From UHGV virus genome UHGV-1406243: a stretch of DNA of 11,436 bases; one strand, 5' to 3'. Source of the stretch: a virus. The position numbers and the translations under genes are program-made. Of the stretch, positions 185-11,427 are shown piece after piece. Below the pieces are notes generated by a model that had not been told where the DNA came from, searched no databases, and saw only the letters and a list, made by a program, of their open reading frames with translations. Numbering within the stretch: position 1 is the first letter of the stretch; each line of letters begins with the position of its first letter.

Positions 185-1399
185 GTGAGCAGAGCAATGA
201 ACAAACTGAGCGATACCTTGCTAAGGAAACTTCATGGTAAGCCAGCGGAGAAAAACACGTTTTATAGTGATGGCGGAAACCTGAGCGTGAAATATTTAAC
301 ATCAGGGAAATTGACCTGGTATTTCACATACAGGGCCGGAACGGGAAGGGAGACACGACCCGAACGCATTAAGCTGGGAAGTTATCCTGATCTGAGCCTG
401 AAAGCAGCCAGGGAAAAAGCCGCACAGTGTCGCACATGGCTGGCTGAGGGGAAAAATCCACGTCATGAGATGAATTACACCGTACAGGAAGCGTTAAAGC
501 CCGTAACGGTTGGCGATGCGCTCACCTACTGGCTTGAGTATTACGTAAAGGAAAACCGCGTGGATTATATCGCCCTGAAAAGGCGACTTAATAATCACGT
601 AATACAGCAGATTGGTGCTATGCCGCTGGATAAATGCGAGCTACGGCACTGGCTGGCCTGTTTTGACCAGGTGGTAAAGCGAACGCCTGTTACTGCCGGA
701 TTCGTGCTACAGGCGTGCAAACAGGCGCTTAAGTTCTGCCGTAGGCGGCGCTATGCAATCAGCAACGTTCTGGACGATCTGAACGTTGCGGACGTTGGGA
801 AAAAACCGGATATAAGCGAACGTGTCTTAAGTAACAAAGAACTTGGCGAATTATTGCAGGCACTGGACAAAAAAATATTCTCCCCTTACTACGTCGCGTT
901 AATCCGCCTCCTGATTGTCTTCGGAGCCAGAACGGTAGAACTGAGGTTATCGGAGATCGGGGAGTGGGATTTTACGGAAATGCTATGGACCGTTCCGAAG
1001 GAGCACAGCAAAACGAAGGTCGCAATATTCCGGCCCATACCGGAAGCGATCCTGCCGTTCGTCACGCAGCTGGTGGAGCAGAACAGGCACACGGGCTTAT
1101 TGCTGGGGGAAGTGAAACAGGAGGCCAGCGTATCGCAGTATGGAAGATTAGCGCACAGGAGGCTTAATCACCCTCACTGGTCACTGCATGACATCCGGCG
1201 CACCTTTACAACCATGCTGAACGATTTAGGCGTTGATCCGCATGTCGTGGAGCAGCTTACAGGCCACCAGATGCCAGGAATGCAGCGAGTTTATAATCAT
1301 TCCCGTTATCTGTTTTCAGTATGCGCATCTAGCGAATCACTCTTTAAAGAGCGAGAAAAAAGGCATGGAACAATATTTTATGCCTTTGTATTAACATGA
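185..1399 (+). CDS. int: Tyrosine recombinase / site-specific integrase, P4-type
   Basis: 404-aa ORF. The N-terminus (LRKLHGKPAEKNTFYSDGGNLSVKY..LGSYPDLSLKAAREKA) matches the P4-integrase arm-binding domain pattern. The C-terminus carries HDIRRTF..LGH..VYNHSRY catalytic-type motifs (His-x-x-Arg and terminal Tyr). GTG start at 185 is 5 nt after GAGGGGG; an alternative ATG lies at 197. Confidence 0.9.
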   Translation: MSRAMNKLSDTLLRKLHGKPAEKNTFYSDGGNLSVKYLTSGKLTWYFTYRAGTGRETRPERIKLGSYPDLSLKAAREKAAQCRTWLAEGKNPRHEMNYTVQEALKPVTVGDALTYWLEYYVKENRVDYIALKRRLNNHVIQQIGAMPLDKCELRHWLACFDQVVKRTPVTAGFVLQACKQALKFCRRRRYAISNVLDDLNVADVGKKPDISERVLSNKELGELLQALDKKIFSPYYVALIRLLIVFGARTVELRLSEIGEWDFTEMLWTVPKEHSKTKVAIFRPIPEAILPFVTQLVEQNRHTGLLLGEVKQEASVSQYGRLAHRRLNHPHWSLHDIRRTFTTMLNDLGVDPHVVEQLTGHQMPGMQRVYNHSRYLFSVCASSESLFKEREKRHGTIFYAFVLT

Positions 1400-3602: not shown

Positions 3603-3861
3603 TGATCGTTTTAATTCCCTGAAACAGGAATGTGATATTTACCACGAAACAATAGACCGCGCATTTCTTGCACTTTCTCACAGTGAAAACATGCTGGAAA
3701 TATTGCGCATATGGCTTGAAACACTTGGCGACAATGAACGCGACAAACAAAAATCAAGAATTGCCACGGCATTAATAACGCTTCTTGAGCCTGTAATAAT
3801 GGAACTGCAAGAAATAGATCTATTGCACGACAGATATAAAGAACAGCACACCGGAGAATAA
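3595..3861 (+). CDS. Hypothetical protein (88 aa)
   Basis: ATG 3595 is preceded by GGGGGG; 8-nt overlap with the upstream gene. Confidence 0.65.
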   Translation: MRDDRFNSLKQECDIYHETIDRAFLALSHSENMLEILRIWLETLGDNERDKQKSRIATALITLLEPVIMELQEIDLLHDRYKEQHTGE

Positions 3862-3866
3862 AAATA

Positions 3867-4166
3867 ATGAAACTTAAATATTCTGGCTTAACTGCCAGTG
3901 GCAACACTCACCCTAAATTTACGCGCGGCGATATTTACCGCGACCAGTACGGCGGCACGGTAATGATTAAGGGCGTGGAAGAACGGCGCGTAACCTACCG
4001 CCGTGAAGGTTACGAATATGATTGCGTGATGCCTGTTTATCAGTTCCGGCGTGATTTTTCTCTGGTACAGACCGCGCCGCATAACGTGTCCACCAGCAAC
4101 GCCAGGGCACGGGCAAACATCCAGAAGCTGAAAACCATGATTAACGGATTCAGGGGTAAAAAATGA
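3867..4166 (+). CDS. Hypothetical protein (99 aa)
   Basis: ATG 3867 is preceded by GGAG. Its stop overlaps the primase start (ATGA at 4163..4166). Confidence 0.7.
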   Translation: MKLKYSGLTASGNTHPKFTRGDIYRDQYGGTVMIKGVEERRVTYRREGYEYDCVMPVYQFRRDFSLVQTAPHNVSTSNARARANIQKLKTMINGFRGKK

Positions 4167-5917
4167 AACTGGCACCGAACGTAAAACAGCAGTCACGCGG
4201 CATAAAACACAAAGAAACAGAAGTCATTATTTTTGCGGGTAGTGATGCCTGGTCACACGCAAAACAATGGCAGGAACATGACGCGCGTATGGCCGGAGAT
4301 AATGAGCCTCCTGTGTGGCTTGGGGAGCAGCAGTTATCCGAACTGGATAAGCTGCAAATTGTGCCGGAAGGCAGAAAATCCGTGCGCATATTCAGGGCCG
4401 GATATCTTGCGCCAGTAATGATAAAGGCGATTGGTCAGAAGCTGGCGGCGGCAGGCGTACAGGATGCAAATTTTTACCCTGATGGTATGCACGGTCAGAA
4501 GGTGGAGAACTGGCGCGAATATCTGGCCCGTGAGCGCCAGAATCTTTCTGATGGTCTGGTCATTGAGCTTCCGGTAAAGCAAAAGGCGCAACTTTCGCAG
4601 ATGGCGGACAGTGAGCGCGCGCAGCTGCTTGCCGATCGCTTTGATGGCGTTTGCGTACATCCTGAAAGTGAAATCGTTCACGTATGGCGCGGCGGGGTAT
4701 GGTGTCCGGTCAGCACAATGGAACTTAGCCGCGAAATGGTGGCGATCTATTCAGAGCACAGGGCCACTTTCAGCAAGCGCGTAATCAATAACGCCGTGGA
4801 AGCGTTAAAAGTTATTGCCGAACCAATGGGCGAGCCGTCCGGCGATTTGTTGCCGTTCGCCAATGGTGCGCTTGACCTGAAAACGGGGGAATTTTCCCCG
4901 CACACGCCGGAGAACTGGATCACCACGCACAACGGCATTGAGTACACGCCACCAGCACCAGGGGAGAACATCCGCGATAACGCGCCAAACTTTCATAAAT
5001 GGCTTGAGCACGCAGCCGGAAAAGACCCGCGCAAGATGATGCGTATATGTGCCGCGCTGTACATGATTATGGCGAACCGGTACGACTGGCAGATGTTTAT
5101 TGAGGCCACCGGAGACGGCGGGAGCGGTAAAAGTACATTCACACACATAGCCAGCCTTCTGGCAGGGAAACAGAACACGGTAAGCGCTGAAATGACATCG
5201 CTTGATGATGCTGGTGGACGTGCGCAGGTTGTCGGGAGTCGTCTTATCGTCCTGGCTGACCAGCCGAAATATACAGGCGAAGGAACGGGCATCAAGAAAA
5301 TCACGGGCGGTGACCCCGTGGAAATTAACCCGAAATACGAAAAGCGTTTCACGGCGGTAATCAGGGCGGTGGTGCTGGCGACCAACAATAACCCGATGAT
5401 ATTCACCGAACGGGCCGGAGGTGTGGCACGTCGTCGCGTGATTTTCCGTTTCGACAATATCGTCAGTGAGGCCGAAAAAGACAGGGAGCTACCGGAAAAG
5501 ATCGCGGCTGAAATCCCTGTCATTATCCGCCGATTGCTGGCGAACTTTACCGACCCTGAGAAGGCACGGGCTTTACTACTGGAACAGCGTGACGGTGATG
5601 AAGCTCTGGCAATAAAGCAACAGACGGATCCGGTTATTGAGTTTTGCCAGTTCCTGAATTTTCTGGAGGAAGCACGCGGCCTGATGATGGGCGGCGGTGG
5701 CGATTCAGTGAAGTACACGACCAGAAACAGCCTTTACCGCGTCTATCTGGCGTTTATGGCGTACGCAGGCAGGAGCAAACCGCTAAACGTAAATGACTTT
5801 GGCAAGGCTATGAAGCCAGCCGCGAAAGTTTACGGACATGAATATATTACGCGGAAAGTTAAGGGAGTAACGCAGACTAACGCAATAACAACAGACGAGT
5901 GCGACGCGTTTTTATAA
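4163..5917 (+). CDS. Replication initiator: P4 alpha-like primase/helicase (D5-type SF3 NTPase domain)
   Basis: 584-aa ORF. Walker A GDGGSGKST and Walker B-like RLIVLADQ are read directly in the C-terminal half. Gene size and the iteron array immediately downstream match satellite Pri-Rep / P4 alpha proteins. The N-terminal primase domain was not confirmed motif by motif. Confidence 0.85.
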   Translation: MKLAPNVKQQSRGIKHKETEVIIFAGSDAWSHAKQWQEHDARMAGDNEPPVWLGEQQLSELDKLQIVPEGRKSVRIFRAGYLAPVMIKAIGQKLAAAGVQDANFYPDGMHGQKVENWREYLARERQNLSDGLVIELPVKQKAQLSQMADSERAQLLADRFDGVCVHPESEIVHVWRGGVWCPVSTMELSREMVAIYSEHRATFSKRVINNAVEALKVIAEPMGEPSGDLLPFANGALDLKTGEFSPHTPENWITTHNGIEYTPPAPGENIRDNAPNFHKWLEHAAGKDPRKMMRICAALYMIMANRYDWQMFIEATGDGGSGKSTFTHIASLLAGKQNTVSAEMTSLDDAGGRAQVVGSRLIVLADQPKYTGEGTGIKKITGGDPVEINPKYEKRFTAVIRAVVLATNNNPMIFTERAGGVARRRVIFRFDNIVSEAEKDRELPEKIAAEIPVIIRRLLANFTDPEKARALLLEQRDGDEALAIKQQTDPVIEFCQFLNFLEEARGLMMGGGGDSVKYTTRNSLYRVYLAFMAYAGRSKPLNVNDFGKAMKPAAKVYGHEYITRKVKGVTQTNAITTDECDAFL

Positions 5918-5929
5918 TTTTTTGTAATT

Positions 5930-6160
5930 GCTGTCTACCCTGTCTACCTGAGTAAAGAAAAATACATTTAATTCAGTGCATTAAGTTAGGTAGATAGCCT
6001 TTTTTTACTGTCTACCCACTATCTACCCTCTCTACCTGATTTTACCTGAATCAGACAGGGAGGTAGACACGGGGTAGATAGTGGATAAAAGCACTCTACC
6101 CCGCTGAAAGCCGCGCCATTACTGGTATGAGGGCCACTAAGGTAGATAAGGTAGACAAGG
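5930..6160. other. Putative origin of replication: iteron array of YCTACC / GGTAGAY motifs with dyad organisation; duplicated at 6379..6609
   Basis: At least 11 copies of the core (T/C)CTACC. Direct copies lie at 5933..6048 (TGTCTACCCTGTCTACCTG, TGTCTACCC, ATCTACCC, TCTACCTG) and inverted copies at 6061..6160 (GGTAGACAC, GGTAGATAG, GGTAGATAAGGTAGACAAGG), centred near 6055. It sits directly downstream of the primase gene. Confidence 0.55.
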
Positions 6161-6205
6161 GGAGGCACAACTCAAAACTTTTTAAACGAGGGGGTAAAAA
6201 TAAAT

Positions 6206-6262
6206 ATGCACACTTCAGGGAAATTTAATAAATCACTCAAAATGACTTTGGCAAGGCTATGA
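6206..6262 (+). pseudogene. Truncated duplicate of the start of the 92-aa gene (18 codons, then stop), created by the tandem duplication
   Basis: Same RBS and first 12 codons (MHTSGKFNKSLK) as the gene at 6655; the reading frame then runs into the duplicated primase 3' fragment and stops. Confidence 0.4.
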
Positions 6263-6654
6263 AGCCAGCCGCGAAAGTTTACGGACATGAATATATTACG
6301 CGGAAAGTTAAGGGAGTAACGCAGACTAACGCAATAACAACAGACGAGTGCGACGCGTTTTTATAATTTTTTGTAATTGCTGTCTACCCTGTCTACCTGA
6401 GTAAAGAAAAATACATTTAATTCAGTGCATTAAGTTAGGTAGATAGCCTTTTTTTACTGTCTACCCACTATCTACCCTCTCTACCTGATTTTACCTGAAT
6501 CAGACAGGGAGGTAGACACGGGGTAGATAGTGGATAAAAGCACTCTACCCCGCTGAAAGCCGCGCCATTACTGGTATGAGGGCCACTAAGGTAGATAAGG
6601 TAGACAAGGGGAGGCACAACTCAAAACTTTTTAAACGAGGGGGTAAAAATAAAT

Positions 6655-6933
6655 ATGCACACTTCAGGGAAATTTAATAAATCACTCAAAAAACGCAGAG
6701 ACAGAACAGAACCGAAATATCGCGCGTTAGACATGACAGAGCACGCTTTAAAGGTGGCAATCAGAACGATAGACCGCCACGCGGGGGAAGGATACGCGAA
6801 AGCACATCCCGAACTGATAAGCGCATTCATGACCACGACGGCGGCAAATTTTGCCACGCTGACAGAGCGGGAGATTGCCGAAGCGGAACAGGTAACAACC
6901 ATCAACGTTAAAACCGGAGAGGTGGAATCATGA
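6655..6933 (+). CDS. Hypothetical protein (92 aa)
   Basis: Strong RBS GAGGGGGT upstream; stop overlaps the ssb start (ATGA). Confidence 0.65.
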   Translation: MHTSGKFNKSLKKRRDRTEPKYRALDMTEHALKVAIRTIDRHAGEGYAKAHPELISAFMTTTAANFATLTEREIAEAEQVTTINVKTGEVES

Positions 6934-7352
6934 CAGCACAGATAGCAGCTTACGGGCGGCTGGTGGACGACCCGCAGGTAAAACAGACCAGCAAGGGCAC
7001 ACCGATGACGCTGGCGCGTATGGCGGTCCCCCTTCCGTGCAGCCAGGCAGATGACGGAACGGCGACGATGTGGTTATCCGTCCTGGCATTTGGCAGACAG
7101 GCCGAAGCACTGGAAAGGCACCGCAAGGGTGAACTCCTGAGCGTGGCGGGTAACATGCAGATCAGCCAGTGGACTGGGCAGAACGGAGAAACGCGGCAGG
7201 GCTGGCAGGTTATCGCAGACAGTGTAATCAGTGCGCGAACGGCGCGACTGGGCGGCAAAAAAGGTCAACAGGGCCAGGCTACTGACGCGCTGAACAGGGC
7301 AAAACAACAGGCGGGGAATGATGATCCGTACGGGGATAACATACCGTTTTAA
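6930..7352 (+). CDS. ssb: Single-stranded DNA-binding protein (short SSB with acidic C-terminal tip)
   Basis: OB-fold pattern comparable to E. coli SSB (IAAYGRLVDDPQVKQT..WLSVLAFGRQAEALERHRKGELLSVAGNMQISQWTGQNGETRQGWQV) and C-terminal DDPYGDNIPF matching the conserved D-D-D-I-P-F tail. Confidence 0.85.
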   Translation: MTAQIAAYGRLVDDPQVKQTSKGTPMTLARMAVPLPCSQADDGTATMWLSVLAFGRQAEALERHRKGELLSVAGNMQISQWTGQNGETRQGWQVIADSVISARTARLGGKKGQQGQATDALNRAKQQAGNDDPYGDNIPF

Positions 7353-7368
7353 GCGACGAGTGACAGAA

Positions 7369-7390
7369 GCCGGAGCAATCCGGCTTTTTT
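7369..7390 (+). terminator. Rho-independent terminator after ssb (GCCGGA-gcaa-TCCGGC + TTTTTT)
   Basis: Hairpin and T-run are read directly. A near-identical hairpin recurs at 9810..9832. Confidence 0.6.
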
Positions 7391-7470
7391 ACGGGTCCTC
7401 CTGGCGGGGTGGGCCTGAACACGGGGCGGGAAGCGCGGAAAAAAGCGCATTTTTGTGATTTTATCGTCAT
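7388..7470 (+). other. Degenerate cos-like sequence (cosQ-like TTTACGGGTCCT, then ACGGGGCGGGAAGCGCGG in place of the lambda cosN core)
   Basis: Shares TTTACGGGTCCT and ACGGGGCGG with the cos at 9830..9900, but the 12-nt cohesive-end core is disrupted. Likely a relic or a divergent site. Confidence 0.35.
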
Positions 7471-7565
7471 CATCATCATGAGCGTAATTTATTGTTTTTA
7501 ATTGTTTTGATGCAAAAAAGATGATGGTTGTGGTTAATTTTCGTTCGACATCTTTGCAGGCAGAT

Positions 7566-7606
7566 AAAAAAGCCCGATAAGGTCAGAGGTGGCTTATCGG
7601 GCTTTT
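7566..7606. terminator. Bidirectional rho-independent terminator (10-bp perfect stem GCCCGATAAG / CTTATCGGGC, A-run upstream, T-run downstream)
   Basis: Read directly: AAAAAAGCCCGATAAGgtcagaggtggCTTATCGGGCTTTTG. Confidence 0.6.
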
Positions 7607-7683
7607 GCATATGAGGCTTTTTGGTGCACTGACACACATGAGCGGGATCATCATTTCATAATTTGCAACACAACTCAATATCA

Positions 7684-7732
7684 TTGCACAAAACGCAATC
7701 CTGATTATAATCAGAGCTGGATGAACATCCAG
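7684..7732 (+). promoter_or_regulatory. Candidate promoter of the capsid operon (-35 TTGCAC 7684..7689, 16-bp spacer, perfect -10 TATAAT 7706..7711) with a 7-bp inverted repeat CTGGATG-AA-CATCCAG (7717..7732) just downstream
   Basis: Hexamers and palindrome are read directly; the location between the upstream terminator and the RBS of the 68-aa gene fits an operator-controlled promoter. Confidence 0.45.
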
Positions 7733-7767
7733 TTATGATTTTTTAAGTCGAAGAGGAATTTCTTACT

Positions 7768-7974
7768 ATGGCTGAAGAGAAAAAAGGCGGTGTTTCGGTG
7801 TACATAAGCCCCGAAATCGTGGAGGTGCTCAAGCAGCGCCACAAAAAAAACTATGAGGCTGGCGTGGCGGCTGGACTGGATCCGCTGATGACGCCGGAGC
7901 CGTCGATAGGTTCACTTGTACGCTCTTATTTACTTGCGGCGCTTGGGATGCATAAAAATTATGGGGGTGAATAA
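7768..7974 (+). CDS. Hypothetical protein (68 aa), translationally coupled to the major capsid gene
   Basis: RBS AGAGGA upstream; its stop TAA overlaps the capsid ATG (TAATG). No recognisable similarity by eye. Confidence 0.65.
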   Translation: MAEEKKGGVSVYISPEIVEVLKQRHKKNYEAGVAAGLDPLMTPEPSIGSLVRSYLLAALGMHKNYGGE

Positions 7975-9029
7975 TGGCAGGCAAAGCAACGGCACTTAAC
8001 ACTAACCAGCTTTTCATGTACCTGAATCGCGGGGATATTGCGGATTTTAAATTCAGCCCTCTGTTTACTACGCTGTTTTTCCCGAACGTGGCGACATTCA
8101 GCACGCAAAACATCATGCTGGATACCCTGGACATTGAAGAAGTCACCATGTCGGCGTTTTGTTCGCCTATGGTGGGTAGCCAGGTTCAGCGCGATAAAGG
8201 GTACGAAACCAGCACGATTAAACCTGGCTACATGAAGCCAAAGCACGAAATCGATCCAACGAAAACCATCATGCGCATGGCTGGAGAAGATCCGGCACAG
8301 CTTAACGACCCTACCTATCGCCGTATGCGCCTGATTACTGGCAATATGCGCCGCCAGATAAACGCCATAAAAGCGCGCGTGGAATGGCTGGCGGTAAATG
8401 CGGTAACGACCGGAAAAAACATCATTGAGGGCGAAGGCATAGAGCGCTATGAAATCGACTGGAAGATACCGGAAAAAAACATCATAGAGCAGGCCGACGG
8501 GAAAAAATGGTCAGCGCAGGACAAAGAAACCCACGATCCAATCTATGATATCGAACTATACGCCGATCAGGCTGGTTGCCCCGCAAACGTCATGATTATG
8601 GGCGCTGAGGTATGGCGAACGTTACGCAGCTTTAAAAAATTCCGTGAGCTGTACGATCTTTCCCGTGGTTCAGAATCCGCCGCCGAACTGGCCTGTAAAA
8701 ACCTGGGCGAAGTGGTGAGCTTTAAAGGCTATCTTGGTGATCTGGCCCTTATCGTCTATTCCGGCAAATACACTGACAGCGATGGTACCGAAAAATATTT
8801 CCTTGAGCCTGATTTGCTGGTCCTAGGTAACACCAACAATAAAGGGCTGGTGGCCTATGGTGCGATAATGGATCAGGAAGCGGTAAGAACGGGCGCAACA
8901 CAAAACATGTTTTACCCGAAAAACTGGATTGAGGACGGCGATCCGGCGATTGAGTACGTGCAGACACACAGTGCACCGCAGCCGGTACCGGCAGATATTC
9001 GCAAATTTGTTACCGTCAAAATTGGTTAA
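7974..9029 (+). CDS. Major capsid protein, phage lambda gpE family
   Basis: Multiple collinear blocks match lambda gpE as I recall it: FKFSPLFTTLFF vs FKFDPLFLRLFF; PGYMKPKHEIDP vs PGYVKPKHEVNP; EDPAQLNDPTYRRMR vs EDPQNLADPAYRRRR; RGSESAAELACKNLGEVVSFKGYLGDLALIVYSGKY vs RGSNSELETAVKDLGKAVSYKGMYGDVAIVVYSGQY; YPKNWIEDGDPAIEY..SAP vs YPKNWVTTGDPAREF..SAP. Length 351 aa vs 341 aa. Confidence 0.92.
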   Translation: MAGKATALNTNQLFMYLNRGDIADFKFSPLFTTLFFPNVATFSTQNIMLDTLDIEEVTMSAFCSPMVGSQVQRDKGYETSTIKPGYMKPKHEIDPTKTIMRMAGEDPAQLNDPTYRRMRLITGNMRRQINAIKARVEWLAVNAVTTGKNIIEGEGIERYEIDWKIPEKNIIEQADGKKWSAQDKETHDPIYDIELYADQAGCPANVMIMGAEVWRTLRSFKKFRELYDLSRGSESAAELACKNLGEVVSFKGYLGDLALIVYSGKYTDSDGTEKYFLEPDLLVLGNTNNKGLVAYGAIMDQEAVRTGATQNMFYPKNWIEDGDPAIEYVQTHSAPQPVPADIRKFVTVKIG

Positions 9030-9041
9030 CGGGGGGATTCT

Positions 9042-9377
9042 ATGGACACTCCATACATTGAGTTATTTGCAGGCAGTCAGCGGGTCGCCACGACGCTGGT
9101 ACATTTTGCCGCTGATGCTGGCGTTATTCAGGAATTTACCCCGCTGATGCTGGCAGACAATGGCGAGTTTAAGCCGTGGGATGGTCAGGAATCTGGCAAG
9201 GCTGTTTATCTGACCTCGTACCCTGTGGACACGTCAAAGCAGAAATCAGCACAGTGTTACAAGACGGGGATTTTCAATATTGCCGCCGTTAACTGGCCTG
9301 AGAGCGTCGACACCGATGCGAAAAAATGCGCCGCCTTTGCGGGTTCCGGCGTATCCGTTCAGCCGCTGGCCCGATAA
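9042..9377 (+). CDS. Head decoration protein, phage lambda gpD family
   Basis: 111 aa vs 110 aa for lambda D. Blocks TPLMLADNGEFKPWDG vs TPLMLDTSSRKLVAWDG and YKTGIFNIAAVNWPESVDTDAKKCAAFAGSGVSVQ vs [44 protein letters not shown] upstream. Confidence 0.88.
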   Translation: MDTPYIELFAGSQRVATTLVHFAADAGVIQEFTPLMLADNGEFKPWDGQESGKAVYLTSYPVDTSKQKSAQCYKTGIFNIAAVNWPESVDTDAKKCAAFAGSGVSVQPLAR

Positions 9378-9389
9378 GCAGGGGGAACG

Positions 9390-9803
9390 ATGGCAACGAA
9401 TGAAAGCGTCATGACGCTACCGCTGGCGAGTAAATTTAAAGCCGAAGCGCGGGCAATGGCTGACAGAGGTTTATCAACCTACGAGGCCGTATATCAACTC
9501 AACAAACTGGAAGAGCAGGACAAGCCGCGCGCTGATGCGATTATGGCGCTTCATGAACATAACGACTATCAGCCGCTGTTACGTGCAATGGCAAACGTGC
9601 CATGTATTAGCGTCGATAATGCTCGTGAAATCCTGAACATGACCATAGAGCAGGAGCGCCCAAAGGTTGCGCCGGAGCTTACCGCAGCCTTTGAAAACTT
9701 TATGGACATGCACAGCCCGAAAGCCGTATCACCCGGCATGGCATACGACGGCAGAAACCAGGGCGATGAAGGCGACGTCGATCGCATACTGAAAACCATC
9801 TGA
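9390..9803 (+). CDS. Hypothetical protein (137 aa), last gene of the capsid module
   Basis: RBS GGGGG upstream; followed by a terminator. No recognisable motif by eye. Confidence 0.7.
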   Translation: MATNESVMTLPLASKFKAEARAMADRGLSTYEAVYQLNKLEEQDKPRADAIMALHEHNDYQPLLRAMANVPCISVDNAREILNMTIEQERPKVAPELTAAFENFMDMHSPKAVSPGMAYDGRNQGDEGDVDRILKTI

Positions 9804-9809
9804 CATAAG

Positions 9810-9832
9810 GCCGGAGAAATCCGGCTTTTTTT
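9810..9832 (+). terminator. Rho-independent terminator (GCCGGA-gaaa-TCCGGC + TTTTTTT), abutting the cosQ-like sequence
   Basis: Read directly; near-identical to the terminator at 7369..7390. Confidence 0.6.
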
Positions 9833-9912
9833 ACGGGTCCTTTCCGGCATATGGACCCGTTACGGGGCGGCGACCTCGCGGGTTTTCGCTATTTATGACG
9901 TTTTTCCGTGAA
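9830..9912 (+). other. Lambda-type cos site: cosQ-like TTTACGGGTCCTTTCCGG, cosN with the 12-nt cohesive-end sequence GGGCGGCGACCT (9864..9875), and a proximal cosB with one R3-like element
   Basis: 40 contiguous bases at 9858..9897 (GTTACGGGGCGGCGACCTCGCGGGTTTTCGCTATTTATGA) match the junction of the lambda right and left ends as I recall it, and TTTACGGGTCCTTTCCGG matches the lambda right-end sequence. It lies about 90 bp upstream of the Nu1-like gene, as in lambda. Confidence 0.8.
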
Positions 9913-9965
9913 GGTGACACCACCACCACTTGATTAATATTTAACCATGCAGTTAAGGTAACATT

Positions 9966-10400
9966 ATGATTGATAAAGCTTGTTTTGTAAGTCAGCAGGA
10001 AATAGCTGAACATTTCAAGGTTAACAGAACCACTATTCGCGCATGGACCAAACAGGGGATGCCGTATCTTAATGCGGATCGCGGAAAGTCTGGCGGTTAT
10101 CACATCGGGCATACATTGCTTTGGTCTTCAGGTAAAAGCCGTCTTGAGACCATCAGATATCACGTAGAAACCAGTGCGCTGGAAAAAATTATGTTTGCCA
10201 GGCTGCTTTCATCTGAGCGTGACGAGTACTCCAGTGAAGAAACAGAACATCGATTTGATGAAGGTTTGCAGATTTACGGCTATTCACCGGAAGATGTGAG
10301 CAAGGCACGAAATAAAATGGCTGGCTTTCTGGCTGGGTGGCGTCATGCCATAAGCGTTCGCCGTGCCAGCATGGAGCAATCAGCCGATACAGAACAGTAA
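9966..10400 (+). CDS. Terminase small subunit homologue, lambda Nu1-like N-terminal DNA-binding domain with a divergent, shorter C-terminal part
   Basis: VSQQEIAEHFKVNRTTIRAWTKQGMPYLNADRGKSGG aligns with lambda Nu1 VNKKQLADIFGASIRTIQNWQEQGMPVLRGGGKGNEV. 144 aa vs 181 aa; I could not align the C-terminal half to Nu1. Sits directly downstream of the cos site. Confidence 0.8.
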   Translation: MIDKACFVSQQEIAEHFKVNRTTIRAWTKQGMPYLNADRGKSGGYHIGHTLLWSSGKSRLETIRYHVETSALEKIMFARLLSSERDEYSSEETEHRFDEGLQIYGYSPEDVSKARNKMAGFLAGWRHAISVRRASMEQSADTEQ

Positions 10401-10453
10401 AGCCGATAACTTGTTAATCACTCGCAGCAATGCATGTGATTTGTGCACACTTT

Positions 10454-10568
10454 CGGTTAACTGGTTCGATGTCCGGTTTTAGTGTCTGTTTTTTGCGCAT
10501 GTCCGGTTCATGGAAAGCATGTTTTTATATTTTTCATATGGTTAACTTGCAGAGAAACCGGACATGGA
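10454..10568 (-). repeat. cosB-like repeat set belonging to the inverted cos: three ATGTCCGGTT elements (10470..10479 and 10499..10508 direct, 10557..10566 inverted) separated by an AT-rich stretch (10520..10545), plus a GGTTAAC duplication
   Basis: Repeats are read directly. Their spacing from the inverted cosN (about 40, 100 and 135 bp) and the AT-rich spacer resemble the lambda R3-I1-R2-R1 layout, but with a different R sequence (TCCGGTT vs lambda CGTTTCC). Confidence 0.45.
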
Positions 10569-10570
10569 TC

Positions 10571-10654
10571 CCGAAAAATTTTCATAAATAGTGAAAACGC
10601 GCGAGGTCGCCGCCCCGTAACGGGCCATAATTCCAGGAAGGACCCGACGACACC
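10571..10654 (-). other. Second lambda-type cos site in inverted orientation (reverse complement of cosN AGGTCGCCGCCC at 10604..10615, with cosQ-like and proximal cosB flanks)
   Basis: The reverse complement of 10571..10654 reads GGTCCTTCCTGG..GTTACGGGGCGGCGACCTCGCGCGTTTTCACTATTTATGAAAATTTTTCGG, matching the lambda cos junction on both sides of cosN. It is an inverted copy of the cos at 9830..9912. Confidence 0.75.
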
Positions 10655-10679
10655 AGACTATCAGAGCGATGGGGGCACA

Positions 10680-10961
10680 ATGACAGAAGCCGAACTACTG
10701 GGATTAATCCGCCGCGTTACCGGAATCAGCCAGCAGCATGACGAACAGGCCACGCAGCCGGACAGCGTGACCGCCGAAAATTACGCGCGTGTGGTTGCTG
10801 AGGTGATGCGCCGTGATGGTATCCAGCTTAATGATGTGGATATGCGCAACATACGGATCCGCGTTCTTGAAATGCTGGCCTACAATCGCCGCGTGGCACT
10901 GTATCGGGAAACGGAGAAAATTACGTACCACTGGAAGAAGCCGGAGCGGTTACGGCGTTAA
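10680..10961 (+). CDS. Hypothetical protein (93 aa)
   Basis: ATG 10680 follows GGGGG by about 5 nt. It is in frame with the 159-aa ORF in the track, whose upstream extension runs through the inverted cos site and is unlikely to be coding. Confidence 0.55.
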   Translation: MTEAELLGLIRRVTGISQQHDEQATQPDSVTAENYARVVAEVMRRDGIQLNDVDMRNIRIRVLEMLAYNRRVALYRETEKITYHWKKPERLRR

Positions 10962-10967
10962 CGAGTA

Positions 10968-11012
10968 GCGACATACCGTGACGGAGAGTGACAACCAGTG
11001 ACACGCCGTGAC
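10968..11012 (+). repeat. Phased array of GTGAC pentamers at exact 10-bp spacing (10978, 10988, 10998, 11008, plus GCGAC at 10968)
   Basis: Read directly: aGCGACataccGTGACggagaGTGACaaccaGTGACacgccGTGACaaaag. Further GTGACC / GGTCAT motifs and the near-palindrome TGGTCATAATGACCA (11122..11136) follow downstream. Confidence 0.6.
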
Positions 11013-11298
11013 AAAAGACGGTTTAACCGTTAATTAAAAATTGACGGGATTTTGTGCTTTCCGGACGACGTGACCAACGTCATTTTTTAGCGAAAAGTTC
11101 TGATTAAGGTCATTGTCTGAATGGTCATAATGACCACTCCTACAAAACAGGTAAAGCCCACCAGCCTGATTAACAGTTAACCGGAAAAAAAATCCGGTAG
11201 CCCCGTTATGGGGATCCCCATATCAACATTAACGCCCCTCATGAATTAGCGCGCTTCCCCCTGGAAAGATGACCCGCCTGTATATTTCTTGTGTCTAT

Positions 11299-11355
11299 TT
11301 GTTCCACGTTGTTTCATACAGTGCACCGAACGGTGTAGTCACTGGTGTAGTCATT
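11299..11355. repeat. attR-side arm region: TTGTTCCACGTTGTTTCA followed by tandem 12-mers GGTGTAGTCACT / GGTGTAGTCATT (11332..11355); direct copy of 96..161
   Basis: CGGTGTAGTCACTGGTGTAGTCA is read at 11331..11353, identical to 137..159. Confidence 0.5.
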
Positions 11356-11427
11356 TTGCGATTTATGGCACTTTTTGTAGTGCAAATCATTTAATTAAAT
11401 CAATGCGTTAAGTGAAATTAGTTATAT

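Follow-up and report, generated by a model that had tools for sequence, protein, structure and literature searches.

Why would a phage satellite that has no portal, protease, large terminase or tail genes carry its own genes for a major capsid protein and a head decoration protein? The question is raised by the virus genome UHGV-1406243, an 11,436-nucleotide stretch of DNA that we analyzed as a whole and refer to as the window. Positions 7768-9803 hold four tightly packed open reading frames (ORFs) of 68, 351, 111 and 137 codons on one strand. A preliminary description had recognized homologues of lambda gpE and gpD in this module, set in a satellite backbone, and had proposed that a satellite-specific shell protein may build a smaller capsid. 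Our analyses identify the block as that of EcCICFT073, a known phage-inducible chromosomal island (PICI), and suggest that its products would enter head assembly driven by a helper phage. For this explanation as a whole, with identity and mode of action taken together, we put the probability at roughly 0.55, as a compromise between the two parts.

The second gene of the block (7974-9029, plus strand) encodes a 351-amino-acid (aa) major capsid protein of the gpE family, the orthologue of EcCICFT073 c1499. It matches Pfam Phage_cap_E (PF03864) over residues 28-349 of 351 (E value, 4.8e-52), PHROG 29, major head protein (4.4e-108), and the PDB entries 3BQW (5.2e-235; approximately 98% identical) and 7VI9 of lambda (2.1e-82). 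3BQW, titled "putative capsid protein of prophage," is the crystal structure of c1499, and the assignment combines a full-length match to the gpE-family profile with a match to a solved structure of the gpE fold. Identity to the capsid proteins of lambda, Gifsy-1 and the CFT073 helper is only 44 to 46%. The third gene (9042-9377, plus strand), orthologous to c1500, encodes a 111-aa head decoration protein of the gpD/SHP family, with matches to Pfam HDPD (PF02924; 2.9e-17), PHROG 49, head decoration (5.6e-27), the SHP structure of phage 21 (1TD0; 1.9e-13) and lambda gpD (1C5E; 3.5e-9). It is predicted to be a trimeric cement protein of the gpD/SHP type. The limits of the module and both homologies had been given exactly in the preliminary description.

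The last gene of the block (9390-9803, plus strand) encodes a 137-aa orthologue of c1501, for which the supplement of the 2018 study of the island listed no function (Fillol-Salom et al. 2018, PMC6092414). The protein is covered by PHROG 1999 (1.4e-61), and the whole of the same profile also covers residues 365-501 of gpC, the 501-aa S49 protease/scaffold of the CFT073 helper (1.5e-68). Against PHROG 53 (head maturation protease), it aligns with profile positions 495-567 of 583, i.e., the C-terminal end (2.3e-9). BLASTP aligns its residues 49-131 with residues 416-493 of the helper gpC at 36% identity, and profile-profile comparison (hhalign) with the gpC/Nu3 tail gives a probability of 97.6% (E value, 3.9e-12). 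An exhaustive profile search among 1.84 billion representatives returned 12 proteins only; a distant match was a 195-aa protein (3e-8) that scores as a head scaffolding or capsid assembly protein in PHROGs. A word-indexed protein search found close relatives only.

The helper tail contains three copies of a repeat (…I-M-A-L-x-E-x-x-G/Y-x-x-L-x-x-x-L-A-x-x-P-x-M/I-T/S-V-x-x-A-R-x-I-L…), of which c1501 has one clear and one degenerate copy, followed by the conserved motif F-E-x-F-M-x-x-H-S-P-x-A-V. The sequence F-x-x-F-M-x-x-H-S-P is common to c1501 and the native helper protein and is not found in lambda Nu3, and direct comparison of the 137-aa protein with lambda gpC/Nu3 gave no significant match; the homology is to the tail type of phage 21, Gifsy and the CFT073 helper. 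The C-terminal repeat and tail of gpC/Nu3 are present, and the protease domain itself is absent. The protein is thus a stand-alone version of this C-terminal part of lambdoid gpC/Nu3, which we call a mini-scaffold. Because its homology is to the scaffold tail of the helper, the block encodes shell, cement and mini-scaffold, and the earlier statement that the island has no scaffold gene does not stand. Our literature search found no paper describing c1501 as a scaffold-tail copy.

Other assignments of the 137-aa protein were discarded. The name "phage head-tail connector protein" that NCBI gives to c1501 orthologues (e.g., positions 10622-11035 of locus L007) is unsupported by family, structure or profile searches, and we rejected it because the only significant relatives are protease/scaffold tails. 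There is no similarity to lambda FI, which had also been considered. The protein has no Pfam match and no PDB sequence match, and its single NCBIfam match is spurious (E value, 0.11; 10.5 bits against a cut-off of 625 bits). The single-chain AlphaFold model is all helical, with a predicted local distance difference test (pLDDT) score of 46, a quality insufficient for a fold search. In E. coli, certain copies of the gene (P0027, P0030 and P0031) encode 93 aa and lack residues 21-64; this loss falls exactly between two "E-A-R-A-M-A" repeat starts, as expected for recombination between internal repeats.

The block and its flanks (7566-10962) are 96% identical to EcCICFT073 at the DNA level, and the proteins are 97.7% (capsid, c1499), 98.2% (decoration, c1500), 89.8% (137-aa protein, c1501) and 98.6% (RppA) identical. 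From the primase up to the right end, genes come in the same order in the two islands, which also share two inverted cohesive-end (cos) sites of lambda type and a similar size. They differ in that EcCICFT073 sits next to phoQ rather than in tqsA, has another integrase, carries perC upstream of the block and possesses another allele of the 68-aa gene (67.6% identical), whereas a 449-bp origin duplication is found in the window alone. It is nearly certain that the capsid block is the known EcCICFT073-type block.

This architecture is not new, and the doubt expressed earlier as to whether it had been described can be set aside (PMC6092414; PMC6893505; PMC10111431). In the work of Fillol-Salom et al. 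(2018, PMC6092414), c1499 was designated as a putative capsid protein and c1500 as a head decoration protein. A capsid homologue was noted, together with packaging into normal-size heads, in PMC6893505. Of the 29 reference PICIs of Gram-negative bacteria, 21 possess a major capsid gene, which is not required for transfer (PMC10111431). Our literature search found no later functional study of PICI capsid genes. As a discovery the locus carries little weight, the architecture, the two named genes, the crystal structure and the negative knock-outs having been public since 2008-2018. The remaining interest lies in the strong conservation of the pair of genes and in the new reading of c1501.

The four genes of the block are intact in 592 of the 5426 complete E. 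coli genomes, including O157:H7, O26:H11, O145 and Nissle 1917 (598 genomes match, 592 of them at a coverage of at least 80%). Full-length copies are likewise found across 80 loci of IMG/VR, nearly all of which have the size of a satellite, with the capsid gene in 80 of 80, the decoration gene in 78 and the 68-aa gene in 79; the 137-aa gene is full-length in 69 of the 74 loci that reach it. Pairwise Nei-Gojobori estimates of the ratio of nonsynonymous to synonymous substitution rates (dN/dS) are approximately 0.09 for the capsid gene (dS 0.3-1.0), 0.10-0.13 at high divergence for the decoration gene, 0.2-0.35 for the 137-aa protein and 0.15-0.39 for the 68-aa protein. The capsid/decoration pair is under strong purifying selection (dN/dS about 0.1), and therefore the genes are functional. 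Roughly one in nine complete E. coli genomes, along with Salmonella and Serratia relatives, keeps this pair.

These data bear on the idea that the block is a functionless relic, left over from a lambdoid head region or a capsid-forming ancestor and carried neutrally. Neither c1499 nor c1500 has a phenotype, and the partner genes for portal, protease and large terminase subunit (TerL) are absent, as such a relic would have it. However, dN/dS stays near 0.1 at dS values up to 1.0, the ORFs are intact in the 592 genomes and in 78 to 80 of the 80 viral-database loci, and the pair is kept down to 52% identity across genera and with differing integrase, replication and packaging modules. The selection data make a pure relic very unlikely. 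For the same reasons, i.e., an intact module under purifying selection in hundreds of islands of the same size, the block is not the decayed prophage head region that the preliminary description had contemplated.

Of the 5426 complete E. coli genomes, 4449 match at least part of the island backbone, at a median of 2 and up to 15 places per genome. With the capsid block in only 598 genomes, the backbone modules are therefore far more widespread.

A search for homologous islands, which had been suggested earlier, showed the capsid/decoration pair to be conserved in satellites of E. coli, Salmonella and Serratia. Among 50,697 phage genomes, no capsid protein was more than 46.5% identical to that of the window, while the capsids of lambda, Gifsy-1 and the CFT073 helper are 60 to 84% identical among themselves. 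Distant relatives of the window capsid, at 68, 64, 56, 55 and 52% identity, come from Salmonella, E. coli and Serratia; each is encoded in an int-alpA-rep-capsid-HDPD island that lacks genes for portal, protease and TerL. Satellite capsids share 50 to 73% identity with one another versus 39 to 46% with phage capsids. As judged from these comparisons, the capsid/decoration pair represents a satellite-only lineage. When the helper head proteins were searched against the 80 related loci, no matches were found except in one to three of them, whose islands lie next to or inside prophages.

The block is paired with different integrases and different replication genes (D5 primase or RepA-type helicase), and the packaging gene is Rpp in 20 of the 80 loci and a Nu1-type small terminase subunit (TerS) gene in 39. 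More distant islands lack the 68-aa gene and have an AlpA-like helix-turn-helix protein in place of the mini-scaffold; the conserved core is therefore the capsid/decoration pair. This second AlpA-like protein, of 114-145 aa, follows the decoration gene at positions 10402-10746 of locus L091, 10403-10756 of L094 and 10375-10812 of L095.

What could the products of the block do? The four genes are intact, belong to a satellite-only lineage and are under purifying selection in many islands and genera, and the island depends on the TerS and TerL proteins of its helper through RppA and the lambda-type cos sites. We propose that, upon induction of the island by a lambdoid cos helper, the block would be expressed as one late unit and its products would enter the prohead assembly driven by the helper. 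The mini-scaffold would dock on the inner face of the shell protein, like the Nu3 tail of the helper, and the satellite shell and cement proteins would co-assemble with, or replace, the gpE and gpD proteins of the helper. The latter would supply portal, protease, tails and the terminase, redirected by RppA to cos1. This mode of action taken by itself is a tentative proposal, possible but with the odds against it. No portal, protease, large-terminase, tail or lysis gene was found among the ORFs of the window in ORF and family scans, and no portal, protease, large-terminase or tail gene is present in the Prokaryotic Genome Annotation Pipeline (PGAP) annotation of a 100%-identical genome copy. 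The part of the preliminary description that had portal, protease, large terminase and tail borrowed from the helper is thus upheld, but the scaffold should be removed from its list, as the mini-scaffold is self-encoded.

EcCICFT073 is induced, replicates and is transferred at high frequency by its helper, as shown experimentally (PMC6092414). Several observations weigh against the proposed role in head assembly. In the same study, c1499 and c1500 were each deleted, asking whether they act like Ccm of SaPIbov5; neither deletion changed the interference with lambda or the transfer by the resident prophage, and the authors found no phenotype for c1499 (PMC6092414). Apart from c1503, the cloned post-ori genes had no inhibitory effect on lambda (PMC6739421). 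The mini-scaffold is absent from the distant islands and therefore is not essential to the role of the capsid/decoration pair, and the AlphaFold model of the 137-aa protein is of too low confidence to judge its docking. Finally, a consensus scan revealed no excess of promoters or terminators around the block, whose bounds as a transcription unit are read from hairpins alone. With the helpers tested, the block is redundant, concatemers being packaged in phage-sized heads and transfer being equal without c1499 or c1500. Co-assembly with the helper proteins is consistent with this redundancy in the laboratory.

Alternatively, the satellite shell, alone or with the mini-scaffold, might build or force the formation of a smaller capsid that accommodates one or two island genomes and excludes that of the helper, in the manner of Ccm of SaPIbov5 or CpmB of SaPI1. 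A satellite-specific capsid lineage under strong selection speaks for such a size redirection, as does the presence of a scaffold-tail mimic, which follows the logic of CpmB in SaPI1. CpmB, in the 2017 work of Dearborn and colleagues, is reportedly an alternative internal scaffold sharing the capsid-binding C terminus of the helper scaffold. Like CpmB, the 137-aa protein is a small satellite protein that copies the C-terminal part of a helper scaffold. Unlike CpmB, it comes with its own shell protein, its homology is to the lambdoid protease/Nu3 tail, and there is no evidence that it affects capsid size. PmCI172 of Pasteurella multocida, compared here by its published description, is also a Gram-negative PICI with a capsid homologue; it makes small heads, and does so with a Mu-like helper (PMC6092414).

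However, size redirection is weakened by published data. With lambda as the helper of EcCICFT073, the packaged DNA was all phage-sized, and induction of CFT073 yielded no PICI-monomer band (PMC6092414). Loss of c1499 or c1500 altered neither transfer nor interference, and the latter is fully explained by RppA, deletion of rppA having restored lambda plaques with titres nearly at the level obtained without the island (PMC6739421). Islands of this type measure 10.5-11.4 kb, and by simple arithmetic four copies would fit a lambda-size head. On the other side, the published constructs leave a gap. In the size-neutral construct, cat replaces c1499, and the construct with an intact block is larger than natural because it carries a tetA cassette, such that natural island size and an intact block were never combined; in addition, the size of packaged DNA was reported for lambda only, whose scaffold tail differs from c1501. 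The worry that c1501::tetA destroyed the third gene in all published tests was dismissed, since primer mapping puts the cassette just after the c1501 stop codon, and therefore the block was intact in those tests. Altogether, we consider size redirection unlikely. The smaller capsid of the preliminary description is not borne out by the near-identical EcCICFT073 with lambda, and dispensability of the capsid genes, which that description had named beforehand as refuting it, is what the c1499 and c1500 deletions show with the helpers tested.

SaPIbov5, which encodes the Ccm protein, resembles the window island in being a cos satellite that carries a homologue of the helper major capsid protein and no portal or terminase genes (PMC8569155, PMC6092414). 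Ccm is needed for small isometric capsids and for interference, whereas c1499 is needed for neither with the helpers tested (PMC6092414). Unlike ccm, the capsid gene of the window island is accompanied by genes for a decoration protein and a scaffold-tail protein.

A more ambitious reading is that the capsid and decoration proteins, with the mini-scaffold in some islands, form a working satellite-specific head-building kit, whose effect was missed for lack of a natural-size island with an intact block and a c1501-matched helper. We regard this as rather doubtful. If true, the island would, given the right helper, surround a stolen portal with a shell of its own, which might be smaller, and these elements would be a half-way stage between classical and capsid-forming PICIs. 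The reading of c1501 as a copy of the helper scaffold tail, and the missing combination of natural size and intact block, may both help design the next experiment.

A further possibility is that the block serves as a weapon or a decoy against non-helper phages, by poisoning lambdoid head assembly or by acting on capsid-sensing systems of the host, to the benefit of host or island. Purifying selection without a transfer phenotype would agree with this idea, 44 to 46% identity to helper capsids could permit faulty co-assembly, and the divergence of the 68-aa gene (68% identity against 98% for the capsid) fits a specificity determinant. Nevertheless, lambda interference was relieved by deletion of rppA and not of c1499 or c1500, single post-ori genes other than c1503 did not lower lambda plaques, and no defence-system signature was found, none having been tested for. 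An interference or decoy function is as improbable in our view as size redirection.

The 68-aa gene heads the block (7768-7974, plus strand), and its stop codon overlaps the start codon of the capsid gene. Its product matches PHROG 3255 (8.5e-46), and in islands of E. coli and Salmonella, homologues precede the capsid gene; the word-indexed search returned close relatives only. The gene is a hot spot of allelic variation, with 67.6% identity to its CFT073 counterpart versus 97.7% for the adjoining capsid, and two main alleles are in circulation. Its divergence may reflect a recombination boundary or a determinant of specificity. The AlphaFold model (pLDDT, 72) shows two helices and has no significant fold match in the PDB (best E value, 2.9). 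The by-eye idea of a ribbon-helix-helix DNA-binding protein was dropped, a NikA fragment at rank 3 (E value, 4.1) not being evidence. A "PerC" database match turned out to be a fusion protein whose PerC domain lies outside the similarity, and the 68-aa protein itself has no PerC match. Lambda gpW, of equal length, shows no similarity.

Could the window be a chimeric assembly or a degraded prophage? Two deletions and an exact 449-bp duplication set it apart from every complete genome, and these could in principle be artefacts. However, it aligns at 99.9-100% identity with a single chromosomal site of E. coli O18:H1 CFSAN067215, where the island lies within tqsA. Apart from three insertions or deletions (the two deletions and the tandem duplication), all outside 7768-9803, the block and its flanks are collinear with that site, and the same architecture recurs at many integration sites. 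The probability of a chimera or a degraded prophage, which the preliminary description had named as a threat to its own reading, is negligible.

The duplication makes 5791-6239 identical to 6240-6688 with 0 mismatches, spans the 3' end of the primase gene and the origin repeats, and is not found in any of the closest complete genomes; it could be a natural amplification of the origin or an assembly artefact. At 1313-1399, 16 bp stand where the CFSAN067215 copy has 258 bp. The integrase therefore retains its catalytic region as far as ...RVYNHSRYL, but 28 unrelated residues stand in place of its final 33. At 3631/3632, a deletion of 193 bp joins two short paralogous ORFs into one.

The window represents a classical Gram-negative cos-PICI of the EcCICFT073 type inserted in tqsA; in the identical genome copy, the island interrupts this gene. 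The integrase gene is at the left end, and the 11.2 kb between the attachment (att) cores are flanked by 76-nucleotide direct repeats (family D2) at 88-163 (attL side) and 11282-11357 (attR side), with a 23-bp exact core at 137-159 and 11331-11353. As is typical of this class, alpA is followed by a co-directional pri-rep gene and a repeat-bearing origin downstream; helper-type cos sites accompany an Rpp gene; and the size is in the range of about 10-15 kb, genes for lysis, tail, portal and large terminase being absent. Capsid-forming PICIs such as EcCIEDL933 have a related int-alpA-rep left arm and their own capsid protein. They encode a full set comprising capsid, protease, portal, connectors, HNH, TerS and TerL and take only tails from the helper, whereas portal, prohead protease, connectors, HNH, TerS and large terminase were not found in the window. 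Resemblance to P4 is limited to the D5-type primase, which is like P4 alpha. The cosN of the window is of lambda type, and Pfam, PHROG and NCBIfam scans of the tested ORFs, as well as the PGAP names, revealed no sid, psu or delta families.

Helper-embedded PICIs (11capE; PMC10111431) are represented by the relatives in loci L092, L008 and L095, which have the same capsid/decoration pair and lie inside prophage late genes, unlike the window island, which is in a chromosomal gene. These relatives occupy 1777-12000 of L008, 1511-13073 of L092 and 3292-13000 of L095. The one in L092 splits the helper capsid gene E into pieces of 91 and 254 aa, and those in L008 and L095 are among the tail and baseplate genes of myovirus-type prophages.

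The other components of the satellite backbone, which the preliminary description had largely recognized, are as follows. The tyrosine integrase gene (185-1399, plus strand) matches Pfam Arm-DNA-bind_3 (2.1e-18) and Phage_integrase (3e-16), its product differing from the reference copy past residue 375. It is followed on the same strand by genes for the AlpA regulator (1538-1726; Pfam Phage_AlpA, 5.4e-17) and the primase-replicase (4163-5917; Pfam D5_N, DUF5906 and Pox_D5), the latter 99.5% identical to the EcCICFT073 copy. The origin region (5791-6688), which encompasses the duplication, has iteron-like inverted repeats at 6013-6087 and 6462-6536. A gene for a single-stranded DNA-binding protein (6930-7352, plus strand; Pfam SSB, 4.9e-15) comes next. 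The perC-family regulator gene found between it and the capsid block in EcCICFT073 and other relatives (e.g., positions 4868-5260 of locus L002) is missing from the window (7259-7565).

Upstream of the block, a hairpin at 7561-7613 (plus strand; inverted repeat I3), with 21-nucleotide arms that are 86% complementary, is a possible terminator and would mark off the capsid block as its own transcription unit. Directly after the block, a GC-rich hairpin followed by a run of T residues (9810-9831, plus strand; repeat D8) is a likely terminator.

Two cos sites lie in inverted orientation on either side of rppA, and both copies of cosN have the exact lambda sequence. cos1 (9834-9911, plus strand; inverted repeat I1) matches the cos region of the helper prophage, with GGGCGGCGACCT at 9865-9876, and cos2 (10569-10646, minus strand) has GGGCGGCGACCT at 10604-10615. 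Both sites had been described for EcCICFT073 (PMC6739421). The gene between them (9966-10400, plus strand), taken earlier for that of a small terminase, encodes the 144-aa orthologue of RppA, 98.6% identical to the CFT073 protein and matching the RppC structure 6HLK (4.5e-31). c1503, i.e., RppA (redirecting phage packaging protein), binds the TerS of the helper and redirects packaging to the cos1 site of the island (PMC6739421). The last gene of the island (10680-10961, plus strand) encodes a conserved 93-aa protein (PHROG 1561, 5.9e-56) that is 91.4% identical to the CFT073 copy.

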